From Amoebophrya sp. A120 (Eukaryota > Protista > Dinoflagellata), in assembly GCA_905178155.1 (NCBI GenBank), contig CAJINV010000011.1:581982-645981 (forward strand): a DNA stretch of 64,000 nucleotides, read 5' to 3'. Below, in pieces: positions 6,201 to 62,482 of this stretch (the first letter of the stretch is position 1; the number at the start of each line of letters is the position of its first letter). The notes below the pieces were generated by a model that ran no database searches, had not been told where the DNA came from, and worked only from the letters and a program-made list of their open reading frames with translations. Made by a program: the position numbers and the translations under genes.

Positions 6201-6606
6201 GCTCCTCCGCCACCTGAAACGCGTCGAGGGTCCTCAAGGCCGCGGGCAAGATCGTCAGTACGGCACCAGGCTCCAGCAGGACAACCGACGGTGCGGCGCC
6301 GAATTCATGAGGGTCTGGTCCCTCGATAGCGCCGGGTAGTTCGTTCGAAGGAGGAGGACTGGAGGAAGATTCGCCGGAGGAAGATTCATCTTTGGAGGGC
6401 GCACTGGGGCGGACCGCACGCACCCTCTGCAGCAACTCGTCATATGCCGTACTCCCTGGCTCCCACCCCATCGCGGTTTCCAACGCAGATCGCGTGAAAA
6501 AGGCCCCTTCTTCAGGAACGGAGAAATGCCGGAGCTGCATGTCGGAAGCAGCCTGGGCGGCGGCGGTGGTAACGGAGTTTTTCACTTTTGAAGATGCCAT
6601 CTTCAT
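3218..6606 (-). CDS. Hypothetical protein A (multi-exon, acidic C-terminus; 3' end uncertain)
   Basis: ORFs 5500-6606 and 3738-4538. Removing introners joins LLWNQK|YHKRHH and SVSDR|DDSDGEE in frame. The link between 5500 and 5163 is assumed to be a canonical intron. Confidence 0.6.
3498..3801. mobile_element. Introner, family H (TIR TATG..TCAG.TGTTACAATCTC.AACG)
   Basis: TIRs; flanks ccatc/cggtc. Confidence 0.8.
4523..4783. mobile_element. Introner, family A (TIR TATCAAATGCAAA.ATGTCTGGGTCTGG)
   Basis: TIRs; left end CA instead of TA; flanks ctctt/ctttt. Confidence 0.8.
4843..5162. mobile_element. Introner, family D (TIR TATC...GGAAAAATCCCCC.CCCCATATC)
   Basis: TIRs; flanks gctag/gccag. 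Confidence 0.85.
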
Positions 6607-11991: not shown

Positions 11992-14900
11992 TCAGCCCCC
12001 CGCACGATGCCAGTCCCGCCACAAGACGGGGACTCCTTCTTCTTGATACGCTCGTTTACTGTGCGACGACGTTTGCAGCTGCGAATGCACTTCCTTCCAT
12101 ACCTGGTGACAGTCGTACCAAAGCTTGTGTTTCAACACTTCCATTTCACTTCGCAGTTCCATGGCCACGTCCACCGGTTTCCCGCCCGCCGCGGGATGGC
12201 ACACCCGCTGCCAAGTCGGAATGACCGCGCGCCGCTGGTAGCCGTAGCAGAACTCCAACAGCTGTAGCACCGCCTCGCACTCGGCCCAGGTGTGGGTGGT
12301 GGCCTCGAACACGATGAGTCGGGGCAGTGCGATCAGCCCCAGATTCTCGAACCGTTCCCACATGAGGGACCGCACGATGCCGTAATCGGCGTATCAAATG
12401 CAAATATCCCTGGACGTCTGGAAGAGTGCAAGATTTGTGACGCAGGTTTTCCATGACCCATGAGGTCTGGAATGCGAGACCCAGCATGACAGATGAGATT
12501 CTTTGAGGTCTCTATCATGCCTTTCTTGCATGAGAAACCCCCTCCCAACTTGGTCAAAACCGGACAGCTTTTGGCACTCACGCAACACAGGCTTTTGCAT
12601 CATTCAGATTTAGCATGACAAGTTCTACTTAATCTTCCAGACATACAGGGATTTTTGCATTTGATACGGCGTTGCAGCAGTCGATCTTAATGGTGTCGAT
12701 GAGCAGAACGCGCTGCAGGGTCTATCGAATGGAAAAATCCCCCCTCCCCATATCAAAACGGAATTTCTGATGCTGGATTTGCGTACACAAATCAGCTTTG
12801 TATTGCAGAGAGGCATTGCGGCCAGGTCCCCAGGCTATGTAGGGGCGTATAGGTCTAGTATTTGTTCAGCATTGCAAACGGCTCCCCTTTAGGCCCAACC
12901 GCATGATAAATTGCTTCCATAATGGGGCGGAAGCTTCTGTCCTTGTCTTCTTGCAATACAAGTGTGATTTGTGACCTCAAATCCGCAACACAAATTTTCG
13001 GAAACATACCTGTTCAATATGGGGAGGGGGGATTTTTCCTTCTGATAGCGTCAGGATCTGGTGCAGGGACTCCACCGGGACCAGTTATCCTGTTTAAAAA
13101 CGCCCCCACCACACAGGTAGTTGTCATGCAATTCTGCATGCTGAAAATGTTTCCCATGCGTAGTCCCATGCGAAGCGCCCACTCGTCGCGTTTTGGAATT
13201 TGTGATGCTCCAACCAGCATAATAGGCCACGTCTGTGATGCTGCTGAAGCAACTAGCCAAACCGAACTACATTACGAGGCCAAACTTGTTATGCGCAATG
13301 CCCAAAGCTAGCTGATTTGTGCAGCAGATTCTCCATCTTGACTCTGGGGTGGAGGGGATGCTTTTATTCAGAATACCAGTTCGCGCTTCATCAGGTGCAG
13401 CAAGCCGTTGGAGGCGAGCACCTGCAGCAGGTAGTCGACCGGCTGCTCTATGCTCGTGCACGCGCACGCCCGCTCGCCCACGAACTGGCAGGTGCGGCAG
13501 TCGTACTGCCGATGTAGCCGGCACACTGTGTTTCCGCAGGTCCGCATGTGCTGCATCAGGTCCGGGTCGAGGCCGTAGAGGTAGCGGTAATGGTTTGCAT
13601 CAAAACTTCTAGTACTGGCCCGAGTGGGTCCTTTACTAGGTTTTCGCCTCTGCCACTCGTCCTTGCGCTTCCAGGCTCTCACCGCAGCAACCTGGATTTC
13701 ATCCGTGGGTTGGATCTTTACAAATATGCACCATAGGCATATTGTTTGACGATCACGACGAAGACGATCAGACATATTTATTATGAACAAGTTGCACAGG
13801 ATGAAAGTCGTGCAACGAAAAATGAAAAACAAGAACCCTCTTCTACTACGTCTCTCTCGCCAGATTCGGTCCGGTAGCTGAGCGGGAGGGGCGCGGCGAG
13901 TAGTTATCGTAAGGGAAAATCCCCCCTCCACATATCGAAAGGGTGCGTCTCAGAAAATTTGCAATGCTGATTTGTGGCCACAGATCGTTTCTGTCTTGCG
14001 CGAACGCAACTCCACAGTCTCCGCCGCGTTCTGCAGGCGGTTTGTGATGCTGGTGGCCCTACAGACTAGACGTTTGCCATGCGCAGCGCCTAGCCCAAAA
14101 CATCTCTACGCAGTCTTGATATAGGCCTGCAGTCCTCTCCAGCAAGACAAATCTGATTTATTGTGTATGCAAATCCAGCATCAGAAACCTCGTTGCGATA
14201 TGGGGAGGGGAAATTTTTCCATTTGATAGCAGGTCCCGCCCCGGCTCGGATACAAACGAGCTTTGTTCCTCCGGAATGTCGGACACCTGCAGCGAGTCGG
14301 GCGTGGCGTCCTCTGCTGAAAAAGTAAGCACCTGTTGCTCGACTGCGCAGGGACCACTTGGCCTTGTGTTCGTGTTCGTCCCGGGGTGCCCACCACTGTG
14401 GGGGTTCCTGGAGGTGGTGCTTGTCGTTTGCTCCTGCTTGATGGCACTGAAAACGTCATAAATTTTCCAACCGTCTACTTCCTCGACAACGAAGCCTGCT
14501 TCCGTCTGGATCTGGCCGCTGCTCCTATTGGTTATGACTTGCACTTGCTCCTCGCTTGCTCCTTCAAAAATATTACCATCGCGTGCCGGTGGTCGTGTCT
14601 CTGTCTTCTTCGCCACATGATCTTCCCGTAGTTCCCGCTGCAAAGGGACCGGAGCCTCCTCGTTGTATACCACTTGTTCATCTCCGATGCTGCTGGTGAC
14701 AAAGACAACATCGTCGTCGTCATAATTTTTATCCTTGCGGCGGTGGGCGGCCACCTGCTCGCCCGCAAGTTCCTCCTCTTCTTCCCACACTTTCCCGGTC
14801 TCCCGGTAGTAGAGCCACGAGAGAAAGTCCGGATTCGTGCAGTCAGAATCGCGGACCAGACGCAACTGCTCTCCCTCGGACTTGTCCGAGAACCATCCCT

Positions 14901-15819: not shown

Positions 15820-16767
15820 TATCTCGCGGTAGTAAATCTATTTGTCGCGGGATGTATGTACTTATGTAGCCTTTATCGGGTCGACGTGCGGCTTGTGGTG
15901 GCGAAGGCTCGTGGCTGTCTCACATCGTCGTGAACAGCAAATGGCTGTCATGATTTGAAACTCACAGTATGTAAGTACTCTTCACACTTTGCAATTTTAT
16001 ACCTTTTTGATTTTTCAATCCTCAACGCGGCCACCATTTCTATTCTATTCTGAGATTTTGCCAGCAGGCGATGCCCATTTTGACGAAGAATGAACTCGCC
16101 GGAAGATCATGTTGAGTCTGAAGATCATGGTCAGCAAAAGAGACGCGTCTCCCGAATATGAATTTCGAAAAGAAAAACACGTGAGCCAAGAAAAGACAGT
16201 GTCAACGACAAGGAAGAGCCACTACCAAATCGACCGCGGGCAAATAGATACGATCGGATCAGAAGAAGAACGTGAACTTCCAGTACTCGGTCCTCCGTGA
16301 AGATCTTCGTATTGTTTCAAACTCGATAGAATCGTGATCCTTTTTCCTTCATAAGAATCTTCCTTCTTGCTTTTCTTACGACGTTCAGCCCAGAGAGGCG
16401 CAGCAAAAGCGGTGCGAATGTTGAACGGAGGAACATTTTTTTCGCACAGAGGAACAATAGAGTGACGCCGACGACGTGTGGTCGTGTACAAGAACGTAGC
16501 GTCCTGACCGTACTATGTGGTCAACAAGAACCCAGGATTTAGTACTTACTCACGAGTCTCTGCGTTAAGGGCAAGAACGGTCATCTCCGTTCTGTCTGCT
16601 TCTCCGTTTTGTTCTCTTGTTTCGGTTTTAAGTATGTTGTTCAGCAACCAAGCATGTCACAGTCACAGTCTGCATCTTCAAGCCTGCGCAACATGAGAAT
16701 GAGTCACAGTCACTTATATAATGCCGCACTTCTATCCATCTACTTCTCCCAGCGCTGGTACTCCTCC

Positions 16768-19700
16768 TCACCCCAATTGGGGATTGTAGCAGACGTTGTC
16801 CTTGGAATAGAAGCTTCGGTCGGAAGGAACGTGGTCGAACAGGTTCAAAAAGTAGTTTTCCCCCGCCGTCCTCCGGCGTACCACCCGCTTCTGGAAGAAC
16901 ACGCCATCTTTTGACTTGTACACAACGGTGCGCGCCAGGTCGCGGAGAGTGCTTGAGGGCGAGAGCCATAGTGCGTGGAGTTGCTGCTGGTCAATCGTGA
17001 CGTCCCACCGGTCTTTGAGGTACAGCAAAAGTTTCTTTTCCACGTCGCTTAGTGCCTGTGAAAGTGCACAGCGACCCTTCCCCCTCATTTGTATGGCACG
17101 AACGGCAATACAAGCAGCACCGAGAATTATGCAGGTCTTGCATGACAAATCTGCACAGGATTGTAGTGCTATTTGGACTGGCAGAACACTTGTCATGCAA
17201 ACAGTGCTAAGAGGCACAGCCTGGATTGGGCATTTTGCATGACAAATGAGGGGGAGGGGGAGTTGTGCACTGTCATATTGCCTCCAACTCGTCGACGCTG
17301 GTCTCCTCGTCTTCCTGCCGGGCCGTGCCGGACGAGATAGTACTGCTCGCGGCTCCACCCCGGTGGTGCAACGAGACAAAGACGTCCTGCATTTTCGTGT
17401 CCAGGCTCCAGTGCGCACAGTAGGAGAGTTGCTTCTTCGTGCCGGTCTCTCTCGAGAATTGCTTCGCCACCGCCGAAGTGGGAGATAAAGAAGACCCGTC
17501 CTTCGAGAGTTCCTCCGACACAGACGAGTCCCCAGGAGCGGGATCCTTCTGCGGCGGCGGGGGCGCCGCGAACCGAAAGCCGCCGATCTTGTGCCGGATC
17601 GCAAGCAGTTGCGGGTTCGCCACACCGTACAGGTGAATCGTAGTCGTGCCGCTATCGTGTGGTGCTGCTGCTGTTCTTTCGGATTCGGGGGAGGCTTTAA
17701 TATGAAGACTGTTCGAGGACGCTCCTGCGACTGTTCCTGTTGCAACTACATCTACAAGATGATTTGTTATAGCACCTGTGTTCATCCGCACCGCGTCTTG
17801 ACTAGTACATCTCTCATCCAACTCCGACAACGGCAAGGATAAGAGCATGAGGTCCGCTTTCATCGCCGCCAGAAAGGCCTCGCGGTTCTTCAGCTGCCGC
17901 TGGTACACTAAGTGCCCGTCGTAGAAGTAGCTGATTAACAGGAGGAACATCAAGAGGGAGGTTGGCAAAAAAATGGTGAGCACCAACAGCAGGAACAGGA
18001 CGAAAAAAACCAACTGCGTGATCCACCGCACCCGCCCGGTGAACAGGTTTTTGTACTTCTCAAATGCCTCCACGTACGACTCAATCGTGTCCAAATACCC
18101 GACAAAGAACTCGACGAATTGCTCGAACTCCGTTTGCAACGAGTACAGATATGCATTGCAAATATCGTGATCTGGGTCTGATTCCTATAAGGTTGCGATG
18201 CTAATGTTCGAAGGATACTTCGCGAACAGTGTTGCTGAGCCGCGCATGGCAAGTTTCATCATCTGAGCATAGCTATGTCTACACGCTAATCTCATGACAA
18301 TAAGGCGCCTTTTTGCATGACAAAGAAGTGGCACTGTAGCACAACGAGCATGACAGAATTTTCTTTCGTCCCGGCCAAGCATGACAATAAACTCGCCTGC
18401 TTCCCGGGGACCCAGACCACATATTAGCAGTGAATAACAGGGGGATCAATCCAACTCCTGCGGCAGAGGAAGCTGCAGCTCCTGCCACGGCAGATGAACT
18501 ACTCGCGTTCATGAGCTGTCCGCCGAGCTGCTGGTGGGTGATCATCCCCCGTTTGCTTTTTCGCGGAATCCCCAAGCTGTGGGTCGTACCATGCGCTGCC
18601 TGGATAGCTGCGTTCATGATCGGGGAAGCTGGTCGTGGCCCACCGCTTAATGTACTTGTTCCTTTCATCAACATATTCGACGTAGTTGTAGTTCCTGGCA
18701 CGATGTCCAGTAGGGCATCGTTATTTCCATAATTTCCGATTTCATCTCCCTGCGCGGAACGTGGAATTTCATCATCTGGTGCCGGTGATATGTTTAAAGC
18801 TGCTGCGGTTGTTCTCCTCTCTTTCCTCTGCCGCGCACTCAGCAGCGCAGCATTTTCCAAAGCCGCCTGCTGCGCCAGGTCTTGCTGGCTCTGGGAAAAC
18901 AGGTTGCGCATGATCTGCTGCCCATCCTTATCCGGATCCAGTGCGTCCCCAAACGACGCGGCGGACTCGTTCTTCCCCAGCATAATCAACGGGCCTCCCG
19001 TAGTTGAACTACCACCGTCGTGCTGCAGCAGGTTATTATACGACAAGTCGCTGCCCAGGTGCTGGGCCGAGGAGGCGGACGTCATAGACCCAAAGGCTTT
19101 CCCCAGCGGGGACGCGAACTGCGCACTGTCCTCGTCCTCCGCCTCCTCATTCCCGGAGGAGTCAATCGTGCCCAGATCGGGGAGCGACGCAAACATCTCC
19201 GTCCTGTGCCCCGACGCAACATGCCGCCGCGCCAGGTCGTGCGAGGACTCGCGGCCGCCCGTGGTATGATCTACTTCGCTGGTCTTGGACAACTTCGTTA
19301 CTCGACTCATCGTGCTGGCAAGTCCTCTTGCGCTGGGACTACTGCGTTGCTCGACTTGTGTAGTCGACATAGGAAAATAACCCGTACTACCCTGCTGTTG
19401 CGTAGTAGTCGCGCCAGTAGGTCGTCCTCCTGGAGATGATATGGTCGAGACGAGTCTGCTTTCGGCACTGAGCTGCGCAAAAACCGCCGCGTTTTTGGAG
19501 CTGATTGGTGTGGAGGTCGGCGAACTGAAGACCGGACTCGAGGGCTGCTGGTGGATGATGGTGGTCACGTTCGAGCGGGTGAGAAACGGTTCGCTTTTGT
19601 CTCTGTCTGCTCCACCGCCCTTTTCTGGCGAGGAGGTGGAGTCCGAGAGGAACGCGAGATTTTCTTGTTGAGCACGACGGAGATCCTCGTGCACTGCGTC

Positions 19701-22700
19701 CGCCGCGTATTTGTCATGAGCGCCAGGACGAATCCTGGACGAAGAAGCACGACCGTGCACTTGCTTGAACAGCTGCCTCGCGTCGACTAGCGCGTCCTCG
19801 CGACACGCCACCCGGGGCGTCTCCTTCGGTATTGTGAGGCAAAATCCCCCCTCCCCATATTGAAAACGAGATTTGTGATGGTGTATTTGCGTACACGAGT
19901 CGGCTTGTATTGCTAGAAGGCCACGAGACGCAGTTACTCCTTCGTTTGCAGGCAATTTGTAATTACACAAAATAGAACACACTTCAATCCCAAAATAAAT
20001 CTCCTTTCTTTCTTTTTTCCTTGTTTCCTTTTTTCCTTCCAATTCGCACGCAATAATTATCGCTACGGGCCTTGAGGCAATTTGTAATGCTGTTTTCCGC
20101 CTCCACTTTCTTCCTGTGATGCTGAAGACGCAAGGGGTTTCCCAGCACGCCAGCCAGTGCCAGCGCTACAGTCTGCATCTTTTCCCTTTTAGCGTCACAA
20201 CGCGAGTTGTGATCATGAATCATGCTACACAAATCTCCTTTTGAGTACGACGAGGGAGGACTTTTCATCTTGATATTCGGACTCACGTGTTTCTCCGCCT
20301 CGTGCAGTTCCTTCGCGAACCGGTGCTCCATGCGTGTTTTCTTCCCTGCATGTTCCCGGCTGCTGTGGTCGCCCGCGTTCGTAGTGGTACTATACCCAGC
20401 AGCACTCGAGGAGGGCTCATTTCCGATCCGGGTGATTCTCGCGCGGCGCGCGACCCAGTGCCGGCGCCGCACCGCAAAATTCTTGTCCCCGTTGCCACCA
20501 CCAAACGTCGGCACGGGCTGCCAGTCGTCGGCGTGGAAAGATTCCGCGTATCGCCACCCGTCCACGTCTGTGGACACGCCGGGACTGGAGACAATGCTCC
20601 ACTCCCAGAAGACCCGGTAGCGGCCAAAATCGGTGTGTTTTTCCGGCGCAGGTCTTTTCGTGCGCGTGTTCCGCACGTCGCACCACTCCGAGGGGCATCA
20701 AATGCAAAAATGTCTGGGTCTGGAATGTTGCCGGGTTTGTCATGCATATTTTGCTTGATCCAGGATTGTGTGTGATGCATGCCCTACCATCACAGACTTT
20801 TAGAACCCTTCCTGCTGCCGACTCCGCATGACAAATGCCCTCCCCAGGTAGCACAAAATAGACTCCTCTTGCTGGTCATGCAATACAGATTTCTTTACAG
20901 TCCAAAGTTAGCATCACAAGTTCCAACCTTCCAGACCCAGGCATTTTTGCATGTGATAACGGGTCACCGGATTGAAAGCCGCTGAAGGACAGGAGCTGAA
21001 ACTTGCTAAACGCGTTGTTCTATGCATCGCAAATGTGTCTAGGTCTGGAAGATGCAACTTTGTTGTGCAGGCTACGCATGACCCGGAAGGTTTGGAATGC
21101 GTGGTCTAGCATAACAAGCTTTGAGAAGACTCCTCGATACTTATTTCGCATTTAGAAACTAGAACTACGTTGCCTTCGTGTTGCCCAAAGTGGGGGCTTG
21201 TTTTGCTGGTCATGCCATACAGACTTTTCTGTCGATCAAATCTCGCATGACAAACTCGGACTCTTCCAGACCCAGACATATTTGCAGTTGATATGTTCAG
21301 TTCGCGTCGTTGTTCCTCCGGGTCCACCACCTGTTCATCCGTGCTGCCCTTGAAAAAATGCAGCACGGCATTCACGTTGTTCGTCACCAGCACCGCACGG
21401 CGCTCGTTTTCAAAGACCTCCATAGACATCGGAATGTCGTCAAAGTTCGGCTCCTGCCAGGACCGGAGCAGCTGCTCCACCCTTGCACTGGGCAGGGACG
21501 CGGCGTCGCTGTTGGCGGCTCCGCCATCGTTGCTGTCCTCCAAATCGTTCAATCTCTCTTGAAACCCGGGGATCTGGAGCTGGGTGCGCTTCTTACTCTG
21601 TCCCGGCGACTTGTTGGACAGCAGGTCGGTGGTGGTGGCCCGTTTGAACGTTTTGTCACTCGGAATTGCGAGCGCGTAATCCTCGGATAGATCCTCAGCG
21701 AAAACGTGAGCCCTGGCAGTGTCACTCTTGGAAGGCGGACTGAGTAGGGTAACGGGAGTAGTTCTTACCGCTATTGCCGTGGCTTTCATGTGTTTGAATT
21801 CAAAATTACCGCTATCAACATCATAGCTAGTGGCGTCTTCATCCTCTGTAGCTGTGGGGGGGTGGAGGTAGATGCCAGGAGGCGCAGCTTGCCTTGATGC
21901 TCTGTCGTAAAAATTATTGCCTCGCCTTCCGGGGATGTCATCGTCCACGGCCTCTTCGTGACTGGAGGACTCATCTGGGTCGGTTCGCGGCCGGCGCGTG
22001 ACGTCGTTGTAGGTATTATCCTCTTCTTGTAGTCCGGAAGCTGCGGAGGAAGACGCGGATTCCTCATTGCTCTCGTCTACTACTGCTCCGCTGTCGGATG
22101 AAACAAGGAGATCCAATTGTGATCCTTCCCCCGCCCCACCGTGAGCCAGCTCCCCCGCATGATGTTGATCTCCTGGTAGTGAGCTCGCGAGAGTCCTCGA
22201 GGGCGTCGTGCCCGCCTCGGCTGCTTGTTCTGCTCGCTCGGTGTTGATACCCATCATCGTGCCGGGATGAACAAGTGGTTCTTCTTGTTGTGCCAAGATA
22301 TTATAATTGTGTTTCTGAGCTGCAAAACTGAACTCCGTACCAAAGTCCACCAGCTGCTTGCACCTTCGAGTGGAAACTCGGTGCAGCCGAAACCCGGCCC
22401 GGTACCCGTAGTGCAGCAGCAACCTGGTGTTTTTCTGGATCCACGGCTTGTTGTGCAGGCTGACGGCTAGGTGCGAGGCCCAGCCGTACAGCCAGGGCAG
22501 GTAATGGAGAAAGAACACGACGCCCATCTCCAGGCCAAACACGGTCCAGAATAGCACCCGCCGTTGTCCGGGCTGCAGCTCCGCGTTGGCCTGCCGCTGC
22601 TTCAGCACCGTCAAGATTTCCCGCAGGTCCAACGCCAGCGCCTCCCGCGGGCTGCTGCGCACGAACGTTCGAAGGCCGGAAGCGGTGTGCGGCAGGAGCG

Positions 22701-36478: not shown

Positions 36479-36904
36479 GCGAGGGGAGCAGGGGAAAAGC
36501 GTAGGAGCTGAACCCTAGCACCTCCTGGGTAATGCCTTTGATAGCGCGTATGACATTAGAACAAGCTCTCGCAGACCGGTCGTAGAACGAGCTCTCGCAG
36601 AACTACAGATTTCTCTTTCCATACCTCCGAATAAACTACAGCGCGAGAAGAACAACACACCAGGATGAGCAACAAGAACAGCTTGATCTTCCCAATATCT
36701 TGACGCATACTCGGTGAGGCGAGTCTGTTCTGACCATGATCACAGTCAGAAGCTTTGTTTATCACTCTATCGAGCAAGGTGGATTTTGACAACTACAAGG
36801 GGAAAAATCAGTGCGGTTTTTCACGAATCTGTAGCAGTGTTGTATTATCTTCGTGCCGTAGCCAAGCTTAGTTTCCTAGAGCAGCTACGGGTTTATTTTT
36901 TCAG

Positions 36905-37035
36905 TAGTGCGTAGTTGTAGTAGTTTAGTTGCGCCAAGCAGAAAACTCATCAGAAGTGCTACACTCCTTACAAACAGAACAAGCGATGGCAACATCACCT
37001 GCTGTTAAGGTGCAGCTTCAGGATGTCCAGCACTA
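36905..37035. repeat. Intergenic dispersed repeat, second copy at about 40290-40430
   Basis: gtagtagtttag.tgcgccaa...aactcatcagaagtgctacac...acaaac present at both sites. Confidence 0.65.
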
Positions 37036-37939
37036 CGAAGAAAATAAAACACTGGAGGCGATGATTCTTGTTGGTTCTATTTCTAATCTTTGTGGCGTTC
37101 AGATGCACAGATGCTTGCTAGCTTGCAATGCTACGCACGGACCGATGCTAAACTAAACACGCGGAAGGTTCGAACATACACAAAATCTGCGTCAGCTTGT
37201 AAAAATGCATGGAGCAAGTATGTTCAAACTATTCGACTTCGACCCCTGTCGACCTGTAGACAAAACAAAAGCAGTCTCAGTGCTGGGGGTTTTCGGGAGC
37301 TTTATCTTTTGCGAGGACTAATATAGCGCTTGTAGTTGTTGGGGTTCCGGCTAAAGTAGATGCACGGAGGTCGAGTTCTCGCCCTTCTTCTTTTCTTCCG
37401 TGCCTGCAGCTTCTCTTGATCTTCGCGCATCCTCGCTGGCTGGCGTAGGAGGATATTTGTTTGTTTGTCAGTTGAGATTGGTCACATGGAACCAGTTGAA
37501 AGGTGTTCTTTCTTCTCATGTGTCAGTGTCTAGCGCTACTTCAATAAAAAGCACAACCTGGCGGAGCTGCTGTGGGGCCCGCCTTAGAAAAACTAACTGT
37601 ACCTGATGCTGGGAGCGCTAATTTTATAGAAAAACAGACCCTGTCTGGAAGACAAAAGGTGTGATGAATTGCTAGGAGAAGTCTTTTCATCTTCAAGACA
37701 TGCTGTTCAGAAATCAAAGCAAAGTCTTACTTTTTTTGTTTTTTTTTTTAAGAGCCTTGCTGCGTCGGTCAGCATCGGATCGTCTAAATCATATAGGAGC
37801 TTTTATAAGTACTTATGCTCCAACACAAGCCAGCTCGATTCCCGCTAGGGTAGATCTCCTGCTGGTAGTGCCGGAACTACTACTGGTAGGATCTCCCGCT
37901 GGTTCCTGGACATCCTGGAGCAAGGGCACCCGAGCAGCC

Positions 37940-39234
37940 TCAAGGGGACCGGAAGTAGCCGCCGGGGACCCATTCCCCCCCCCCCGCAAGAGCAGCAAAG
38001 GGGACCGGAACCAAGGGGACCACGTCGGAAATTGGATTTACCGGAAGTGCGCGACGAGTTGGAGAATATCCACTGCAAACATCCTGTCTGTGTGGGTCTG
38101 AAAGCTTGTGAAGCTGTCGTGGGTTGGCCAGGAATCAGAAACATCGGCGGCCATGCATGACAAGATTTTGGGCTGGTAGGTCTAATTGCCTGTTCAACAT
38201 CTACGTGCAGAACGAATAAAACGGCGCGCCCCATGCCATCATTTTGGGCAACGTGCGTGACAGCCTTGAAGGTCTTCTTCATGCTAGCCGATAATAGTAA
38301 GTGTTGCACTTATTCTTTTCCCGACCCAGACATCATGTTTGCATATGCATACAGGTGGAACCAGCGGCTTTGCTGCGTAGGAATTGATCATAGAAGCCCA
38401 CCGGTTCACCAACTGCTCGCTGCTAATATGCATGTTCCAAAGGTCACGGAAGTCACGGACAAAAGTGTCAAGCTGTGCGTGATTCCGCCATGGGGACTGA
38501 CGACCTGCAACCTTTTGGAGGCTAAGATGAGCCACCTGGTCATAAGGTTTGAATCTCCGCCACTTCATGGCTGTGCCGTGAGCCGTGAACCGCAAATGTG
38601 CCTGGTCGCGGTGGCCGTTGATCACGAGGGCGGCGAGAAAAGCTTTGTGCCCGAAACGCAAGGTTGGCGGATCAACAACTTTGTACCGCAAAGGGAGAGA
38701 AGGCGGCGTGGCGGACTTGTATTCCAACGTAATGCCAAAAGGACGGACCTGGTCGGGGCCGGGACGGGTCAGCGAAATGGGTGGCGAACGGATCAACGAA
38801 ATGGTCCAGTAAGCCGCTGGAAAATCGAACGATCCGCTCGTCGTCCGGTGCTTAAAGATATGCACGATAGTGCGGTCCTCGTTCTCGGAATTGTCCAAAA
38901 AGTAATACCACGGATGGGGGTCGGTCAAGTCATCCTTGAGTGACTCACGCAAGGATGAAAAAAGCAGGTTCTGTACCTCTTCTTCTCGCAGCTGCGGAGC
39001 TAAAGTGGCATCTATATTGAATGCCTCTCCAAGTCGTTTGACCTGATACTTCATCGTTGCCCCACGTAAGAAACCATGCTTGTTATACGCATCCTCGTAA
39101 TACGCAAGAAGTCCTTCCGCGCCCACATTCGTAACGGCTTCACGGTGTTCGGCGGTCCTGGACCGCAATGCGCTGACCACTGCCACCGTCGACAAGTGAC
39201 AAACGAGAGACATCGCAAGAAAACGCGCCGGCAT
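37940..39234 (-). CDS. Hypothetical protein with a possible N-terminal signal peptide; one introner
   Basis: 316-aa ORF with hydrophobic N-terminus; removing 38067-38351 gives LVPPA|TRRALPV...FRSP*. Confidence 0.55.
38067..38351. mobile_element. Introner, family A (old, TSD decayed)
   Basis: Diverged TIRs; flanks gagaa/caggt. Confidence 0.6.
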
Positions 39235-40638
39235 TTTCTTTGGTACAATGATGCGCGAGATGATCGATATGATGATAATGCTATGGATATCAATAGGAAC
39301 GAATCGTCCTAGATAAGATCTGACCCAGCTCCACTCGGTACGAAGATTCTACGTGTAGATGTTGGCCCTGGGCGGGTCAAGTGGGGAAATAAAGCCGAAT
39401 TACAATTCAAACAGAGTTGCGCTAAAAAGCGACGGCAAGAAGCACAGCTCCAATTGTCACAAGACCGCGCAGGTGTCGTACGTAATGATGTTGCCAGAAG
39501 TAGATGTGGTAGAAAGTGCTTGCTGTAGTTTGTTTGGTAGAAAGTGCTTGCTGTAGTTTGTATACTGTTTTCAAGCTTAAGAGCTAAGTTGGTGGCGGGA
39601 CGTCAAAGAGGGAACTGTTGCTGTGCGTTGTGAAAAGAGAATGCACTGCAGCCATCTTCTTCAAGTGCTACTAGATGGGCCGACTGACAAGAGATTACAA
39701 CTCCACTAAAAGAAATTGATCCCCGAAAAGTGCTTTTTCTGTTTCGTTGTTTCCATCAAATTCATCGTTTCACCGATATTGCAACATTTTCCTGAGTCGA
39801 TTTATCTCTCTTGTTTCAACATTTATTTTTACCGAGGAGAGAGATTCTGCTTAGTGCCTTCCGTCAAGGTCGCATTCATTTCGAAAAGGGCTCTTTCGTA
39901 TGATCTCCTCTATGATTTTTTTGTGAACTTCTTTCCATATTTCGAGCCACTCACATCAAAGATTTGTTTCCGCTGATCTCCTACATCTTTGGCCCAACCA
40001 TACCGAATAGCAATAGGAATAGACAAACCCAGAATGAAAGTAATAAACCAGGACGAAGAGCAACTAGAGCACTTTGATCATGCCTTCTTGACCAACATCA
40101 CGCATAGTCGGTAAGACGGGCCTGTGCCGACTCCACATGGTGGGTTCACGCATAGTCGGTAAGACGGGCAAGTACAAAAGGAAAAATCAATGCGGTTCTT
40201 TTTCAAGCAAATTGCTAGACAGCAGTGCATTTTGGCGCGGTAGAGCGAAAAACCTTCTTTATTTCGAGCGCTGATTCCCCAGCCAAGTGCGTACTTGTAG
40301 TAGTTTAGGTGCGCCAAATACAACTAGAGAACTCATCAGAAGTGCTACACCACTCACTTACAAACTGAGAACAAGTGATCAGGGCAACTACTTATATCGC
40401 CTGCTGTTGACGGAGGTTGCTCTAGGGGACGCAAGTAGAACACTTTCTTCTCTGCAAGAACTATGCCGTGTTTGTTGCCCCCGTAGATGGAATTGTTTAT
40501 CCTTTGTACTCAATTCCGAATTTCTGCACCTCATCTTCGAAGAATTTTGTTGCTTTGTGAGACGGTGAAACCAAAAACAGGCTGGTGTTGAGACTCTTCC
40601 TTCTTTTTCTAGGCTTCTTATGATTACACGACTGTGCG

Positions 40639-40868
40639 TATGAGAGTGCACAACCCCCCCCCCACGTCCCTCTCGTTCGCCATGCAAAAGTATACCATCT
40701 CCACACATTGCGTTGCCTCGTGGCACTTTTTGCATGACAAGTTCTAGCAGCCGAAACAGTGCGTACAATCCTGTGCAAAATTGTCATGCAAGACCTGCAC
40801 TGTTGGTGATGCTTGTATTGCTGCTCATGCCTTACACGCGAGGGGAGGGAGAGTTGTGCACTCTCATA
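40639..40868. mobile_element. Family C element outside any recognised CDS
   Basis: Perfect 16-bp TIR tatgagagtgcacaac; flanks gtgcg/gcgcc. Confidence 0.85.
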
Positions 40869-41740
40869 GCGCCTCAGAAAATTTTCATGCGAAGCGGTCG
40901 AGCACCAGATACTTATTTAAGTGGAATTTCGTGAAAGTCGTACATCTAAAAGGCCGTAGTACTGCTGCGAATGAAGATTTTTGAACATCGTTCTTGCAGC
41001 TATGCTAAAATCCGGAGGAAAGTTACTCTATCGACAAAACAGAGATGTTATATTCTACTTTAATAACCTGCGCGAAAGGGAAACGGTTCATGCGATCAGA
41101 TTTTTCATGTTCGATGAGATGAGTATGTTTTTTCGAAATAAAAGCTCGTCACTTTGTACACCTCTGCCGCCGGGAAAGATCCCGGGCGATGCAGACTGTG
41201 ACAGCTTTTTGACTGTACACGTCGATGTTTTTTTACGATCAGCTGTTTTAGTGATATTGCATAATTCCTGGTGGGAGTTGTTATCCTTACTAGACGAAAA
41301 ATTTTTTGTTGACATGTTATTATGCAGGATGATTTTATAGCTTGTCGTGATGAAACATGAAAATCCAGTAGTGCACTTCACTACATTTAGAGCTTTTATA
41401 ATACACTTTGCGGTTAATACTAACGTCATGCTGTAATTACTGTAGCAGTAAAAAAAGAAAATGACGGATTTTTACAAATTTGATTATCACTATTGTACAC
41501 GAAAAAAGTTCATAGCATATCGGCTTTCTATGTATACTGTAAATCAGATACCGCCTCTGCAAAACCTCCTGCTCCGACTTTTGTCTAGTGATACCACTAG
41601 CAATTTATTTTCAAGTCGAGACACAAGGGCTTAGAAATAACGCAGTCGATACACTGCGGGACGCCATAATTTCTTGTTTTACTGTAGTTCATCTTACGGA
41701 ACAAAGTCATAATAGTACTTATCCGGCGACCCATGCAGAC

Positions 41741-44700
41741 TTACGCCTGCACGTTGGCCATGGGGAACATGATGCACTTGACCTCGGTAAAGTTTTCCAG
41801 CGCGTATTCGGACTTTTCGCGACCCCACGCATATCCCACAGAAAGAAGCAGATGAAAGAGCGTATTTGTAAAATGCAAGTATAGAATGTACTTTACTTAG
41901 TTCTTGTGCATCCTAAAAAAACACAGCATGCTGACGGCTCGCCCATGACAGATTTTTATTTTCTGTCAGTTACTTTTTGCATCACAAGCATGCCCCGCCT
42001 GCTTTTTTTCTGTACGATAACCCGGACTCCTTGTAGCCGCCAAAGGGCACCGCGGCGTCAAATATGCATTGCAAATATGCCTGGGTCTGGAAGATTGCCA
42101 GGTTTGTTATGCATATTTTGCATGACCAATGACGCCTGTAATGCATGCCCTAGCATCCCAGATTTTTAGAAGTCTTCCTGATGCTTTTTCCGCATGAGAA
42201 ATGCCCTCCCCGTGTAGCACAAACTGGACTCCTTCTGCTAGTCACGCAATACCGATTTTTTTGGAATCCAAAGACAGCATCACAAGTTACCACCTTCCAG
42301 ACCCAGACAATGACAATTTTGCACTTGATATCAAAGTTGTCGTAGCAGTTGATCCACACGGTTCCGTATGAATTGCAAAAATACTTCTTTAGTCGCACCC
42401 GTACTCAATATGCAGACACGCATGACAAACACAAATCTTCTTCTCAAGGTGAAACAGCCTTACAAATTGCATTCGTCATGCTGAGCTACTTAATTTGTAA
42501 AATACTGAGCTACTTAATTCGTAATATACTACGTACGACTACACTTTTGCACTGCATATTCCGGCCTCCAACCGGCGCGCAATGCCCATCGCCTTCCCAA
42601 TGTCCGTGCAGCACACGCCCGCAGCCAGTCCGTAGTGCGTGCGATTGGCGCGGGTCACGGCGTACTTTATCCTCCGCAAAATTGTCCCCACCCCATACTT
42701 GGAATAAACTCTGCAACACAAATCGAGAAGTTTTGGGAAGCGGGCCTGCCAAGATTCTCCCTGTGTTGCTGTGCAGGTTAGCAAGGACAGCCGTAAATCT
42801 TCACAAAGCCGTCTCCCTAGCCTGCTTAGAGCATTGGATTGCAAACACCAAAACAACTGCCATGGAGGGGATGCGCATCTTCACATATGCTCCTGTAATT
42901 GCGAACCTGCATGACAACTCTGGGATTGTGGGGACGTTTTTACACTGGATATCCTGCGAAGATTATTTTAACATCATGCAGAGCAATACCATGAATGTGT
43001 TTTTCAAGGTTCTTGCACGAAACTTGAATCCAGACTCTCAGGCCGTACGCTTAACTCGTGCAGCGCTTGAGTCGTGCGCTTAAGCCGTGCGCTTAGGTCG
43101 TGCGCTTAAGTCGTGCGCTTAAGTCGTGCGCTTAAGCCGTGCGCTTAAGTCGTGCAGCGCTCCTGCCAACTTAAGCCGTGCGGCGGTTAAGTCGTGCAGC
43201 GGTGGAGCCATTCGCTTGGTTCGAAACCTCCTAACTCGTGCGGCGATAGAGTCGTGCGATTGAGTCGCTCAGCAGCGCTCTTAAGTCGTGCGCCTAAAAA
43301 CCCGTACAGCGGTTCAGTTGTGCGCTTGTTGACTCGTCCGATGGTTAAGTACTTAAGTCGTGCGCTGAACTCGTGCAGCGCTTATTAAAAAGCCGCGTGT
43401 AACTACTTAACGTTTAAGAAGTCGTGTGCCTAACAACTCGTGCGCTTTTACTGGTGTTGCACTGATAGGAGCGTGAAGAAGAGCGTAAGTACTTCTCATC
43501 AAAAGCTTAGTACCTCGATGCTGGAATACTTCTGCAGCTGCATGACCGGGCCAAAAATTTCTTCCTTCGCGATGGTCATGTCGTCCGTGACATCGCCAAA
43601 CACCGTGGGCTATCAAATGCAAATATGTCTGGAAGAGTGCAAGTTTGTCATGCAGCTTGTCTGGCATGAGTCTTAAATCTGTGACGTCGATGAGCAGGGA
43701 AAGGACCTCTTTCCTGTCATGCGAAAACGCAGTTTGTCATGCGAAAAACGAAACACACAGCACCGCAAAAACTTGCCATGCTGGGCTGCATATTCTTGTA
43801 GTGTCTTCCCACCACTCACAGATTTGCATCACAAGTTCTTTCCAGACGACCCAGACATATTTGCATTTGATATGGGCTTGATGAAGTAGCCACAGTCGCC
43901 ACGTCGCTCCCCGCCGGTGAGACACTTGGCGCCCTGCTCCTTTCCCCCCGCAATGTAGTTCAAAATCCTGTCAAACTGAATCTTGTCCACCTGGGGACCC
44001 TGCTCGCACCCCTCCTTGGTACCCATGGTGACCTGCTCCGCGCGCGCCACGCACTTCGCCGCGAACGCGTCGTAAATCGACTCGTGCACGAGAATGCGGG
44101 AGCTGGCGCAGCAGCACTGGCCCTGGTTCAGGAACAACCCGACGTGCGCCACCGCGGCCGCCTGGTCCAGGTCCGCATCCTCTACCACACAGAAAAAAGC
44201 AGGCAGGCCACATTTGTAATGCCAAAACAAATACACAAAAAAATTAGTATTGCATATCCTAAACAGCTATATGTTATGGGGCCGCCTGTCATGACAAATC
44301 TTTCTGTGTATCTATTTTTGCATTACAAATAATATGGCCCGGTGCCTGCTTTTTTCTCTAGGGTATCCTCCGTGATGATCAAGGAAGACTTTCCGCCCAG
44401 CTCTATCCTTAGTAAAAATGTCCCCACCCCAGAGTTGTCATGTTGGAATGCAGATTTGCGATGACAGGAATACTTGTAATGCGCATCTCCATGAGAGGCA
44501 TTACCAGTCGCGTTTTGAAATTTGTAATGCTGCAAACAGGATAAGAAGATGGATTTGTGACGCGGTTTTCCTTGCTAACATGCACTACACTACGGACTGC
44601 AACTTGTCATGCGTGGCTCCCAAAACTTCTGGATTTGTGTTGCTAAGTCCCCAACTTGACTCTGGTGTGGGGACGTTTTTACTCAGGATAAGCTCGAGCG

Positions 44701-46484
44701 TCACCTTCTTCAAGTTGCCCTGGCCCGACATCTCCACGATCTTGTGGCCCACCAGCGAGGACCCGGTGAAGCAGATCTTGGCAATGTCCGGGTGCTTCAC
44801 GATGGCGTCGCCGCACCCCGGTCCATACCCGGAAATCACGTTCAACACTCCCGGCGGGAAGCCCGCCTGCTTCGCCAGGTCGCACATCATCAAGGCGGTC
44901 AACGGGGTCTTCTATCCCATGTAAAAACGTCCCCACCGCTCCATGGTTGTGTGTCATGCAGAATTGCATCTACAGGGAGATCGAGAATTGTCGCGCGCAT
45001 CCCCATGAGAGGCACTTTTAGTCGTGCTTCAGAATTTGTGATGCTGTAAACAGGATGAGAAGATGGATTTGTGATGCGGTCCTCGTCCTTGCTAACCTGC
45101 ACCACAATTACGCTGAGATAAAAACTTGTCATGCGTGACTCCCAATAAAACTTCTGCATTTGTGTTGCAGATTTCCCATCTTGACTCTGCGGCGAGGGCG
45201 TAGTTTTTGCTCAGGATATCTTCTCCGAGGACTTCATCACGCAGGTGCAGCTATCAAATGCAAAAATGTCGAAACTTGTGACGCTGCGTTGGGAATAGGG
45301 AATGCCCTGCAATGCACAACCAAGCATGAGAAATATCGTCGCTTCTTTGTGGTGCGTTTTTGCATGACAGGCCTAAGGGTCTCTTCTTGGACACGCATCA
45401 CAAACTTTTTGGTCATCCCAGACAAGCATGACAAATCTCGCAGTCTTCCAGACCCAGACAGTTTTGCATTTGATAGCAGCCCGCCGCGAGCAGCGGACCC
45501 CACTTCCACGCCAGCATCAGGATGGGAAAGTTCCTATCAAATGTAAAAATGTCTGGGTCTGGAAGAGTCATGCTGTTTCTGCATGACACAGCAGGTCTGG
45601 CATGGAAGCTCTAGCATCACAGGTTTCGAGAAGCTTCCGCAATGCCGAACCTGCATGACAAATCCCCCACTTTGGTGACAGAAAGTGGGCAGCTTTTGCT
45701 ACCCATGCATGAGAGATTTTTGTGTGTTCTGAAATGCGCATGACAAGTTGCATTCTTCCAGACCCAGACATTTTTACATTTGATAGTTCCACGGGATCAC
45801 GCAACCCACCACGCCCACCGGCTCGTTATGAGAGTGCACAATCCCCCCTTCCCTCTCATTTGTATAGCAGGAGCGGCAATACAAGCGTCAGCAAGAATGC
45901 AGGTTTTGCATGACAAATTTGCACAGGATTGCAATGCTATTTGGGCTACCAGAACTTGTCATGCAAACAATGCCAAGACGAGGTATAGCTATAGCCTGGC
46001 ATTCTTGGTGTTTTGCATTACAAATGAGGAGGAGGCGGAGTTGTGCACTCTCATACTCGTGGACCGTCATCGCGAAGGTGTGCGGGTCCTCCGTCGGAAT
46101 GGTCTTCCCGCACATGCCCTTGTCCGCGAACCCCGCGTAGTACCGGAAGTGCTGGATGGCCAGTTGAATGTCCACATTCCGGGCGGTCGAAACTGGCTTG
46201 CCGTTGTCCAGCGACTCAACTTCGGCCATCTGCTGCTTGTTCTGCTCGAGCAGGTCGGCGAGCTTCAACATCATGTCGCGCCGGGCCGGTCCCCCGCAGT
46301 CGCGCCAGGTAAAGAAGGCCTGCTTCGCGGCCGCCACCGCCTTGTCGACATCGGCCGCCGTGCCCTTCGCCACCGAGGCGATCACCTTCTCGGTGGAGGG
46401 GTCGATGGTGTCGAAGGTGCCGCCATCGCTGGCGTCGCACCACTCGTTATTGATGAAATGCTGCGTGCGGATCTCCAACGGCAT
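41741..46484 (-). CDS. NAD(P)+-dependent aldehyde dehydrogenase (ALDH1/2-like); 11 introners plus one GT-AG intron
   Basis: Reconstructed motifs: [76 protein letters not shown]; stop TAA at 41743-41741. Confidence 0.97.
41832..42019. mobile_element. Introner, family G
   Basis: TIRs; flanks acgca/acccg; splits ESG|WGRE. Confidence 0.85.
42063..42330. mobile_element. Introner, family A
   Basis: TIRs; perfect TSD tcaaa. Confidence 0.9.
42367..42558. mobile_element. Introner, family F
   Basis: TIRs; perfect TSD ttccg. Confidence 0.9.
42668..42951. mobile_element. Introner, family B, adjacent to a canonical acceptor
   Basis: TIRs; flanks tactt/tcctg. Confidence 0.85.
42954..43513 (-). other. 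Canonical GT-AG intron of the ALDH gene
   Basis: GAG|GTACTAAG ... TTCGCAG. Confidence 0.8.
43040..43445. repeat. Intronic minisatellite, unit about 13 bp (CTTAAGTCGTGCG)
   Basis: Many tandem degenerate copies. Confidence 0.9.
43611..43872. mobile_element. Introner, family A
   Basis: TIRs; perfect TSD tgggc. Confidence 0.92.
44183..44365. mobile_element. Introner, family G
   Basis: TIRs start TACC; perfect TSD tcctc. Confidence 0.92.
44404..44690. mobile_element. Introner, family B
   Basis: TIRs; perfect TSD agctc; splits the catalytic LEL|GGKS motif. Confidence 0.95.
44913..45218. mobile_element. Introner, family B
   Basis: TIRs; perfect TSD tcttc. Confidence 0.92.
45252..45475. mobile_element. 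Introner, family A
   Basis: TIRs; perfect TSD gcagc. Confidence 0.92.
45535..45785. mobile_element. Introner, family A
   Basis: 32-bp perfect TIR; perfect TSD gttcc; splits PWN|FP. Confidence 0.95.
45827..46055. mobile_element. Introner, family C
   Basis: 15-bp perfect TIR; perfect TSD ctcgt; splits VHE|PVG. Confidence 0.95.
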
Positions 46485-47529
46485 CCTGATAACTGGGGCG
46501 CTTTGCTTCTTTTAGAAACAACAGCGATTTTCTATCTGTTGGATTTTTTTCTTTTTTTATGTTGTTTTTTCGATGGATCTTCACGTCGTGTTCGAGATAG
46601 TTAGAAGAACCGTTATTGCGCTGACGAGCTTTCAGACCAACTGATGAGAAAGCGAGCTTCTTGGCGTAGTTTTTCCTTTTTAGGTACTTATTTGTTCGAG
46701 CAAATAAATCAGGAATTTGATAAAAAATTCCGACTCAGGTGTGTAATCTTGCAGTGGAGGTTTAGTTTGGAAAATTGTTGAGCTACCGGGGTGCCCTTGT
46801 ATCACCTGCGTTATTGCGAGTGGGTGGATCCATATTTAGCGAGTTATATATCAGGTGATCTACGTGCTGACCGACGTTGCGTGACAAAAATGCGAGGCTA
46901 AAATTCAGTTTGTCTCTCCACATGAGCTCTCAAAATTTTTTATCGGCCGTTCCTGCAACGTTACGGAGCCGGTGCTCCGTTCATGGGCTATAATGATCCG
47001 TACCGAAATACGGCCGCGTGTAGCAGTACAGCAGGAGGATTGCACATAACGCTCGGCTCGAAAACTGATGAATTTATTCTGTTCGGCGCTGTCGCCTTAG
47101 AATGTCCTTTTGCGACCTTGTAGTCTCATTAGTGCCTGGATCGGTATTCTATCACTTGCTGTTGTTGATTGAAACGACATCGCTGCTGAAGAGGAAGATG
47201 AAGATGATGAAGATGATGTAGCTCGAGCTGAAAATAAAGAAGAAGAAGAAGATGATGATGATGATGCGGCTCGAAAACTAAACTGAGAATCGCGGGACCG
47301 GAGAGTACTCTTGCCAGGAGATCTTTGTTGGCGCGAAGGGACTCGCGGCGGCCCCGTGCGGCGCGCAGTTCTGGTGCACCTTCATATTCTACCGACACTT
47401 ACGCCGTATTTTACACGCGGCGGTCGGAGACGTGCCGGCGTGCACGCAAGGTGAGAAGTGGCATGGCCACGCCTGTTTCACGGCGGACGCTGCAGTACTT
47501 CGCGCATGCGCGCAGCGCCAAGCTCTCGA

Positions 47530-47640
47530 CCGGGCGGGGGCCGGACCGGGTGGCAGGGCGGGGGCCGGACCGGGTGGCCGGGCGGGGGCCGGACCGGGTG
47601 GCAGGGCGGGGGGCGGACCGGCGGGGGCAGGACTGGGTGG
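47530..47640. repeat. GC-rich 24-bp tandem repeat (GGGCGGGGGCCGGACCGGGTGGCA)
   Basis: Three to four tandem copies, G-run rich. Confidence 0.85.
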
Positions 47641-48590
47641 CCAGCGCAAAATGCCGCACGTTGACTCACCACAGGCACACAATCTCGCACAGCGCCCAGA
47701 CAAAGTAGTAAAATATGGCACGGCGGCTGTTCAAAGTAGCAGAATACGGTCTCTTGCCCAGTCAAAGTCGGAAAATCTGGCACATTACCGGGTCAAAGTA
47801 GCAAAATCCGAGGCGTTGACCGGTCAACTTCGCAAAATCTGGCACGTTCAACGGCCAAAGTTGCAAAATCTGGCATCTTGAGCAGTCAAACTCACAAAAT
47901 GTTGGATGTTGAAAAATTGCAGTTGCAAGATCTGCCACGTTCAATGGCAAAAGTTGCACAATTTGGCATCTTAAACGGCCAAAACCGCAAAAACATCGCA
48001 AAGCATTGCCTATTCACTACAAAAATTTGGAAAATCCTATGTGTTAACCGGTAAAAATTGCAAAATCTTGCTTATTGACCACCAAAACTTGGAAAATGTG
48101 GCGGCTTGACTGATCAAAATCGAAAAATCTTGGTAATTGACAAGCCAGAATCAAAAATTATGGGCATTTTACCGGCAAAACGTGCAAAATATTGGAGAAA
48201 ATTGCAAAATATAGCAAATTCATTGGCTCAAGTGGGAAAATCTGGCACATTGGCCGCCGAAAATTGAAAAATATTCCACATCAACTGGCCAAACTTGTAA
48301 AATAATACATATTAAGTGGCGAAAATCCTGAAATTTTGCGCACTTATCAACCAAAGTTGTGCAATTTTGCACCAAACGTGGCCAAAGTTGCAAAGTCTTA
48401 CGCGCTAACTCGCCAGGGTTGCAACATTTTGCAAATTTACCAGCTAAACTCCGAAAATTGTTCAGAGTCAAAGACAAAAGTTAAGCAATATTGCATAAAA
48501 AAGGCAAGAGCGTTGTAATGTTGCACAAGTTCACTGAAAAAATGTGAAATCTTGCTGATTGACTTGCCAAAATCGCAAAGCCCTCAACTC
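47640..48590. repeat. Degenerate satellite with a period of about 33 bp (CAAAGTTGCAAAATCTGGCAC.TTGACCGGT)
   Basis: Recurrent gcaaaatctggca and aaagttgca motifs at regular spacing. Confidence 0.7.
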
Positions 48591-49873
48591 GCGACCGTCG
48601 GGGGCCCTCACTGAGTATGATGCAACGACCTGCCTCCTCGATGAAGGCCGGTGGCAGTGCAAAGACCCCCTCCTACATTTCGCTCCATGACCGCGCGCGC
48701 TCGGGTAGCGACCTGTCAAAGCAGACCCGACGGGGTCGGTTTCCCCCCCCCCCCCCTCCTTTCCGTCCGCGCACAAGCCGCGAAGCAAGCGGAGCGCGGC
48801 CATATGACTGCGACCATCGTCTTCATCCATGGCCCCGGACGCCCTTCCCCCCGGTCCAGTTCGGAAGGGGGCCCTGACGGCGCCGCGGCGCCTTCCTCGG
48901 GCGGCGCGCGTTCGCGCTACGATTCCAGCCGCCGGGCTGGGTCCGGGCTTAGGGACCCCGGGCCGAAGGATGTTGCTCGCTCCGCCAGCGGTGCTGCGGC
49001 GATCGGTATTTCGGGGCGAGGCGCCCGGGCCGTGCTTCGGGCACTGTCAAAAGAAAACGCGGAAACCGCACCCCGGGAGTGCAGTCACAGCGGCGCCCGG
49101 GCGCCCGGGAATCGGGGCAGCCGCGACCGCACCCTCTCGCCCGCTGCTTTGCGACGGTAAAAATTAGTCGCCCGTGCTACAACCGCTGTGCATCGGGAGA
49201 ATAAACCTATCACCAATATCCTACTGCGTCCAATACTAACTAAGGTGCGCGTCGTGGTCCTCATTGAGAAGCTTTTCAACCTTCAAAATTTGGCGTGTCT
49301 GGTCATTGAAATTTTGAACGAAGTTCCGTGGCTCAGCGCGATGAGAAGTCAAGTGAGTGAAAACAGATCCTGACGCACCGCTAGATCCGTTCTACTACCC
49401 AACCACATTCTCAAACACAAACTTGAGCAGCAACAGGGCACGCCGTAGTCTTAAATTGTGCTTCTCGAAGATGGAGTGAGCGTCTCTGTAAAAATTGTTC
49501 CAACGCTACCGCATATGATACTACGAGGGACTACGCGTCGTGCTCCTGTACCCACGGAAGAAAACTACACATGGCAGCATATCAATTTCGCGCCCGAACT
49601 ACGGAAATCGTCGGCCGCCGCCGAGCACGTGGCGCAGAAGAATCCGGGCATTTTTCTCGCTGTCCCGCGGTCGCTTTAACACCAGCACTACTTTGTCGAG
49701 GATTTTTACGCACCGCAGAACCCTTTCGTATCAACCTGCCGAAGAACTACTACCCGCGACGCCGAACCCCCTGGGGCATCGCCACAGAACTCGCGTGTTC
49801 TACTGCGACGCGCTTGTAGCCCGGCGCGCCGAGTAGTGTAAAGCCCGGCCGCGGGGGCGACCAGGTCATAAGT

Positions 49874-62300: not shown

Positions 62301-62482
62301 AGGACTGGCTCAACCCGTGGTGGGCGCGGGTCAGCGACGGCTGCAACTGCAACCGGGACTCGCTGTCCAGCATGGCAAGCGTGTTCGGGAAGGATTTCGA
62401 CCTCGTCAGTTTTGAGATTGACAGCTGCGGTACGTGTCCCTGGAACGCTTTGTTTCAGGTAGGATTGGGGCGGAAGAAGTAG
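59358..62482 (+). CDS. Class I SAM-dependent methyltransferase (Methyltransf_11, METTL7/TMT1-like) with a membrane anchor and a long low-complexity insert; 3 introners
   Basis: VLDFGAGSG, ALEPN, SIDYILLGNALCMVDD...KRLLKP..GRIFFSEHV...W...DGCNCNRD; junctions in frame (LGN|QLL, NLS|SPD, ARM|CRVR). Confidence 0.85.
59763..59907. mobile_element. Introner, family F
   Basis: TIRs; flanks ggaat/gaaat. Confidence 0.9.
59973..60234. mobile_element. Introner, family A
   Basis: TIRs; perfect TSD tctct. Confidence 0.9.
60576..60842. mobile_element. Introner, family A (diverged)
   Basis: TIRs; perfect TSD ggatg. Confidence 0.85.

Follow-up and report, generated by a model that had tools for sequence, protein, structure and literature searches.

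How can an intron be removed to the exact base when its ends carry no recognizable splice signal? Around two thirds of Amoebophrya introns are reported to lack GT-AG (PMC7789003), and the question is raised again by an aldehyde dehydrogenase (ALDH) gene within the 64,000-nt stretch of DNA from the parasitic marine protist Amoebophrya sp. A120 analysed here (the window), which is densely populated by short elements that start with TAT, end with ATA, and carry inverted repeats of 20–40 nt (TIR) and a 5-nt flanking duplication (TSD). These elements are A120-type TIR introners of the kind described by Farhat 2021 (PMC7789003), where a hairpin, direct repeats of 3–5 nt and arbitrary terminal dinucleotides are reported; elements, hairpins and non-canonical ends alike have thus been described before. 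The repeat profile of the window shows the TAT, seven variable bases and at least three A of the A120 definition, the 5-nt TSD falls within the 3–5 nt given for the border repeat, removal from transcripts with non-canonical ends is seen as a joint for at least 23 of the 63 elements studied, and two deposited Amoebophrya sp. A120 proteins match window exons at 100%. The legend of Fig. 3 in the same paper describes the splice sites as variable with respect to the hairpin, and the border as unknown (PMC7789003). In contrast to that description, the mismatched TSDs of our window point to a single register of -1/+4, in which the intron would begin one base before the 5' TIR and end four bases after the 3' TIR. 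A fixed A120 register is not suggested in the titles and abstract openings of the open-licence PubMed Central and bioRxiv papers listed in literature searches; it is also absent from the available portions of PMC12130899, PMC11453091 and PMC11282704, and bioRxiv 2025.08.15.670264 makes no mention of Amoebophrya.

A strict scan for a TIR accompanied by a TSD, with 20 shuffles as control, returned 49 pairs, 32 of them with a perfect TSD, while the shuffles gave between 0 and 3 pairs and no perfect TSD; the introner pairs are above chance level. Our working set of 63 elements, to which all counts in this window refer, consists of 56 of 61 candidates and seven hand additions, two of which came from transcript joints (38067 and 44183) and five from relaxed scans (29587, 34708, 60576, 1027 and 24278). 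The remaining candidates, at 25415, 25848, 39986, 44211 and 48358, were removed as weak or internal pairs. The elements begin with TAT in 60 of 63 cases, and 61 measure 109–446 nt. Two larger elements of 2.2 kb, at 1027–3217 and 24278–26543, have introner-type TIRs, a 5-nt TSD and an interior of tandem repeats. The set has the TIR, the fixed-length TSD and the lack of coding capacity of MITEs, the 2.2-kb pair having no open frame above 235 aa, and the element interiors match each other in both orientations, as repeated families do. An autonomous cognate transposase was not found in A120 by Farhat, according to the available text (PMC7789003). Long reading frames reappear once each element is taken out together with 5 nt; up to 47 kb these frames lie on the minus strand, and beyond 48 kb on the plus strand.

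The TSD is perfect in 41 elements and mismatched in 22, the number that the initial annotation had estimated. The mismatches spread evenly over TSD positions 1 to 5 (8, 5, 5, 9 and 5; p=0.67), and because of this uniformity they do not by themselves give the splice register. The register was read from transcript joints, with four runs aligned on 27500–47000 and four on 12000–22200. Runs X3–X6 are contigs, presumed to be RNA, from two samples of one study; contigs drop rare forms, and most joints carry the flag 'between: not known'. On 27500–47000, 15 of 27 joints were listed and 13 were collinear; on 12000–22200 the figure was 11 of 11, made up of ten elements and one canonical intron. Two joints, 28220–45566 and 33200–35710, were dropped as cross-matches, each joining different element copies. 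The raw-read runs X10 and X11 gave no collinear joint at a coverage of 4/30 and 2/30 bins, with every read lying only partly on 27500–47000.

For at least 23 of the 63 elements a removal joint was obtained, and in 22 of the 23 the skipped length is that of the element plus 5 nt; the last, of 849 nt, resolves into 289 + 560. The contigs on 12000–22200 also skip the canonical GT-AG intron at 13692–13849, and no other letter in them differs from the window. Family members in opposite orientations are both removed (12723 and 13905, 17057 and 40639, 42668 and 44404), so an oriented internal signal is not needed. The coordinates of the introns that bear on the register are collected in Table 1.

Table 1. 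Features of the ALDH gene and of the introners whose joints bear on the register. Overhangs are the ranges, in nt, allowed by each transcript joint.
Feature	Positions	Strand	Remarks
ALDH coding region	41741..46484	-	484 aa, PF00171; 11 introners and one canonical intron inside
Introner body, TIR to TIR	41832..42019	.	188 nt, in ALDH gene
Transcript-upstream TSD copy CGGGT	42020..42024	-	positions 1–3 exonic in contigs; under the proposed rule the exon would run through position 4 and the intron open with position 5 (42020)
Transcript-downstream TSD copy TGCGT	41827..41831	-	positions 1–3 intronic in contigs; under the proposed rule the intron would close with position 4, and position 5 (41827) belong to the exon
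Intron predicted by the -1/+4 rule	41828..42020	-	193 nt; joint allows 41827–42019, 41828–42020 or 41829–42021
Introner intron	12719..13048	-	body 12723–13047; overhang 4–6
Introner intron	13901..14229	-	body 13905–14228; overhang 4–6; family of 12723, opposite orientation
Introner intron	17053..17278	-	body 17057–17277; overhang -1 to 4, excludes 5; four runs, two samples
Introner intron	18146..18437	-	body 18150–18436; overhang 1–5
Introner intron	20692..20959	-	body 20696–20958; overhang 4–5
Introner intron	38063..38352	-	body 38067–38351; overhang 2–4 only; found by joint, missed by strict scan
Introner intron 3' of ALDH stop	40635..40869	-	body 40639–40868; overhang 4–5; family of 17057, opposite orientation
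Introner intron	42664..42952	-	body 42668–42951; overhang 4 (one 849-nt intron) or 4–5 (two adjacent introns)
Probable canonical GT-AG intron	42954..43513	-	560 nt; acceptor within upstream TSD copy of element 42668
Probable one-base exon	42953..42953	-	between canonical intron and introner

The element at 41832–42019 was where the initial annotation had located its argument, holding that the upstream TSD copy stays exonic, that the intron ends 5 nt beyond the 3' TIR, and that neither an acceptor sequence nor TSD identity is needed. The element folds as one long hairpin (z -4.46; equally stable shuffles 0/200). In the contigs of X3 and X6, 41826 and 42020 are directly adjacent, a skip of 193 nt that gives ESGWGRE, and SGWGR is present in 17 of 19 homologs; use of the upstream allele at this site is borne out. 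The deposited protein P0004 also reads ESGWGRE, but is no independent witness, since transcript data of a similar kind may lie behind it. The two TSD copies differ at positions 1 and 3 only, leaving a joint ambiguity of 2, and overhangs of 3, 4 and 5 nt therefore yield identical mRNA. The 5-nt overhang that had been read from this element is not fixed by it, and is rejected by the elements at 17057 and 38067. A further introner, at 40639–40868, lies 3' of the ALDH stop codon, and its removal is no less exact than that of introners within coding sequence.

To compare joints we let k count the bases of the upstream TSD copy that remain in the mRNA, a value equal to the 3' overhang. Nine joints, including that of 41832 (3–5), are informative: k=4 fits all nine, k=5 fits seven and k=3 fits four, and if each joint had its own register, drawn independently and uniformly, these nine joint sets would arise with a probability of 7e-4. 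An overhang of 3 nt or less fails at 5/5 joints able to test it. The two joints that can put the 5-nt overhang to the test, 17057 and 38067, both reject it, and there the mRNA has the fifth base of the downstream copy; the decision between 4 and 5 rests on these two joints from one study. The elements at 17057 and 40639, from one family in opposite orientations, jointly bracket k=4. The element at 38067 is placed on the minus strand by a 372-aa minus-strand ORF and by its neighbours, though a 325-aa plus-strand frame also spans the joint. Position-5 mismatches are also present at 33167, 34708 and 50601, for which there is no joint among those listed; searches of deposited proteins for 33167 and 50601 gave no matches, the fragments recovered do not cross 33167, and the mismatch at 34708 is synonymous.

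These observations make it likely that the introns follow the rule N-TAT...ATA-NNNN, so that the mRNA would retain upstream positions 1–4 together with downstream position 5, and very probably this single register is common to all copies. The nine commonest non-canonical classes of A120 in Table S4 of Farhat all begin N-T and none is TA (PMC7789003), which agrees with an overhang of 4 nt; aligner tie-breaking may underlie these classes. At 38067 a one-base insertion within the 5' repeat leaves the cut unshifted, and from this element the reference for the cut seems to be the terminal TAT and not the A run. The distance given in the initial annotation is thus likely to be off by one base: positions 1–4 of the upstream copy are kept as proposed, but position 5 comes from the downstream copy at 17057 and 38067. 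Mixed registers had been named there as evidence against the proposal, and one form of mixture, upstream positions 1–4 with downstream position 5, is what the transcripts contain. A 3' site set by distance from the TIR end fits the joints once 5 nt is corrected; the ruler may be the paired stem or the terminal motifs, 15058 and 17057 being removed although mispaired. Exact removal at mismatched sites upholds the view that TSD identity is not required.

A natural test is offered by the 849-nt joint in the ALDH gene, which is best read as a canonical intron, a one-base exon and an introner (560 + 289). A single 849-nt intron at 42664–43512 fits the data too and is less likely. An in-frame AG lies 3 nt past the 3' TIR of element 42668 and is unused: it would give Tyr, and the contigs and P0004 read Asp; in 17 of 19 homologs the residue at this site is either Asp or Glu. 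The AG beside the introner is bypassed, at least in the dominant form. A fixed order, with the introner removed first, was considered and abandoned, the same mRNA being expected from either order.

The intron ends were also considered across the whole set. With an overhang of 5 nt the intron would end in AG in 2 of 63 elements and with 4 nt in 5 of 63 (p=0.45; background 6.9%), which is not the AG acceptor of U2 introns and agrees with the earlier description of the 3' ends as arbitrary. The donors at k=4 are GT in 21, CT in 17, AT in 14 and TT in 11, with +1 at background, and likewise do not have the GT/GC of U2 introns. None of the positions +1 and -1 to -4 carries more than 0.07 bits, and each of the 16 combinations of a +1 base with a -1 base is present among the 63. 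Base +1 pairs with the 3' overhang no more often than expected by chance (12–18/63), and the first base of the next exon is a purine in 34/63, equal to background. Intron +2 is T and +3 is A in 63/63, with 0/126 changes as against 6/126 in the 3' partners (p=0.03, uncorrected), a pattern that looks like a spliceosomal donor.

The pairing of the ends was predicted for 61 folded elements, the two 2.2-kb elements being left out. The TIR core is predicted to be paired in 59 of the 61, and all three terminal pairs in only 41. An A-C mispair in place of the second terminal pair does not prevent the exact removal of elements 15058 and 17057, and the excess of G-U over A-C in the stems (95 vs 71) is not significant (p=0.07). 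One element, at 44183–44365, has TAC/GTA ends, its third terminal pair having changed in a compensatory way, and is removed exactly in transcripts.

Taken together, our data show an exact removal that is independent of AG and of orientation, and the allele that is used at nine mismatched sites. We give about an even chance to the proposal that fixed -1/+4 cuts from the TIR ends are made by a structure-guided machinery working like the nonconventional splicing of Euglena. The predicted TIR hairpin would bring the intron ends together, and the terminal TAT/ATA motifs would act as reference points for cuts one base before TAT and four after ATA; the intron would then likely be measured from the hairpin and not read by the sequence of its ends. 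The two overhangs sum to the 5-nt TSD, so that no insertion, whichever way round, would leave a scar on removal, and this scarless removal would account for the spread of the element through coding sequence. A dedicated nuclease-ligase would, on slightly better than even grounds, be the catalyst in place of the spliceosome; it is favoured because nothing is read at +1, -1 and -2, because there is no fixed branch A, and because of the parallel with Euglena. In its fullest form, which we hold tentatively and a shade under even, A120 would possess a second, spliceosome-independent splicing, convergent with the Euglena code, that reads only the TAT/ATA-capped hairpin and cuts scarlessly at -1/+4, even where the neighbouring exon is a single base; its substrates would number tens of thousands of introns.

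The same -1/+4 register could also be produced by a relaxed major spliceosome, a possibility to be taken seriously even though we judge it distinctly under even. Here donor bases +2 to +5 (N-UAU-G/C) would come from the TIR, the missing U1 would be replaced by the hairpin, and the position of the 3' site would depend on its distance from the end of the TIR or from an A within the TIR. The invariant T and A at +2 and +3 are what such a donor would have, and the two canonical donors examined both begin GTA. Against this, the second splicing step normally reads positions +1, -1 and -2, all of which are unconstrained; +2 to +4 would be hidden in the stem; and the 63 elements have no invariant A at -5 or at -7, where 20696 and 44183 respectively carry G and both are removed in transcripts. 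Other dinoflagellates are described as keeping G+1 and relaxing +2 (GC, GA), the reverse of the pattern seen here (bioRxiv 2020.10.14.339549). More in keeping with spliceosomal removal, every top non-canonical class of A25 starts with TT and the A25 repeats start with TTA, an arrangement that would yield the same +2/+3, and U2, U4, U6 and most spliceosomal proteins were found by Farhat while U1 snRNA was not, as far as the available text goes (PMC7789003); the non-canonical introns of Fritillaria also appear to be spliceosome-excised (review PMC11282704).

Those introns of Fritillaria borealis resemble the A120 introners in MITE origin, TIR, TSD and non-GT-AG ends, but prefer AG-AC and AG-AT ends and an exonic TAC, neither preference being seen in A120 (Henriet et al. 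2019, as reported in PMC11282704). The TIR introners of Aureococcus, Symbiodinium, Polarella and Florenciella are likewise described as non-autonomous DNA transposons from which one TSD-worth is removed, and some work in both orientations or draw both splice sites from the TSD (PMC9860276; bioRxiv 2020.10.14.339549). As described, they carry or co-opt GT/GC/GA and AG, whereas A120 would cut both ends within the TSD with no demand on sequence.

The closest parallel to the structure-guided reading is found in Euglena, whose nonconventional introns are also non-GT-AG, have a paired terminal motif at fixed spacers, and have a proposed MITE origin (Nomura et al. 2025, PMC12501133). Knock-in experiments reported there showed a 3-nt donor spacer and a 5–6-nt acceptor spacer around the paired motif (PMC12501133), and in both systems the 3' spacer exceeds the 5' spacer, by 2–3 nt in Euglena and by 3 nt in A120. 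The A120 introners share the paired ends at a fixed cut distance, with pairing predicted and a single distance inferred from nine joints. The motifs differ: Euglena has CDG/CHG, spacers of 3 and 5–6 and a purine at the start of the next exon (PMC12501133), and A120 has TAT/ATA, spacers of 1 and 4 and no purine bias. The A120 introners thus work like euglenid nonconventional introns and, on their motif, are no members of that class; with a euglenozoan host on one side and an alveolate on the other, convergence is the likely link. In Euglena these introns are reported to be removed later than conventional ones (PMC6221363) and to yield circular products, for which RNase III-like or tRNA-like routes have been proposed (PMC12621601), the release form being a full-length circle without a lariat (PMC12621601, PMC12501133).

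A register that varies within the duplication, as in the reading of Farhat, or that is mostly 0/+5 with exceptions, is an unlikely account of the same joints. It draws on the wording of the Fig. 3 legend (PMC7789003) and on the Euglena acceptor side, where 5 or 6 is tolerated (PMC12501133); moreover, each joint gives a range and not a point, 5 is allowed by seven of nine, and two joints alone separate 4 from 5. These same two reject 5, five of five reject 3 or less, and all 23 skips equal the element length plus 5 (with 849 nt as 289 + 560), so that both cuts would have to shift jointly. An origin of the joints in artefact (RT jumping from one direct repeat to the other, edited RNA or allelic differences among strains) or in DNA loss of elements is very improbable: the runs are only presumed to be RNA and hairpins between direct repeats favour template switching, but long frames appear only after element removal, the spliced ALDH contig has a depth of ~1058 against 19–45 in unspliced pieces, the same contigs skip a canonical GT-AG intron with no other letters differing from the window, and switching at the hairpin base should retain the downstream copy where five joints retain upstream position 4.

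If true, the fixed -1/+4 rule N-TAT...ATA-NNNN would make a code of what has passed for 'no signature', and would allow ~30,000 introns to be annotated to the right base. It would also direct work on lariats, circles and end mapping, and would add a second lineage with Euglena-like spacer geometry. Mismatched TSDs would provide a cheap method of fixing the register in any introner-rich genome.

Several other features of the window were recorded. A near-identical duplicated stretch, at 1–372 and ~6524–6898, heads two neighbouring loci in the translations. The switch from minus-strand to plus-strand genes falls in a repeat-rich, apparently non-coding region at 47187–48460 with 31-nt and 24-nt arrays. 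On the plus strand, a long gene at 49820–58231 contains 12 introners; Pfam searches with five single exons and an Atlas search with one exon gave no usable match, and a motif across its element 55390 recalls what we take to be an RNase III signature. Further along the same strand, an exon at 60848–62479 encodes a class I methyltransferase domain (PF13489, E 8e-12).
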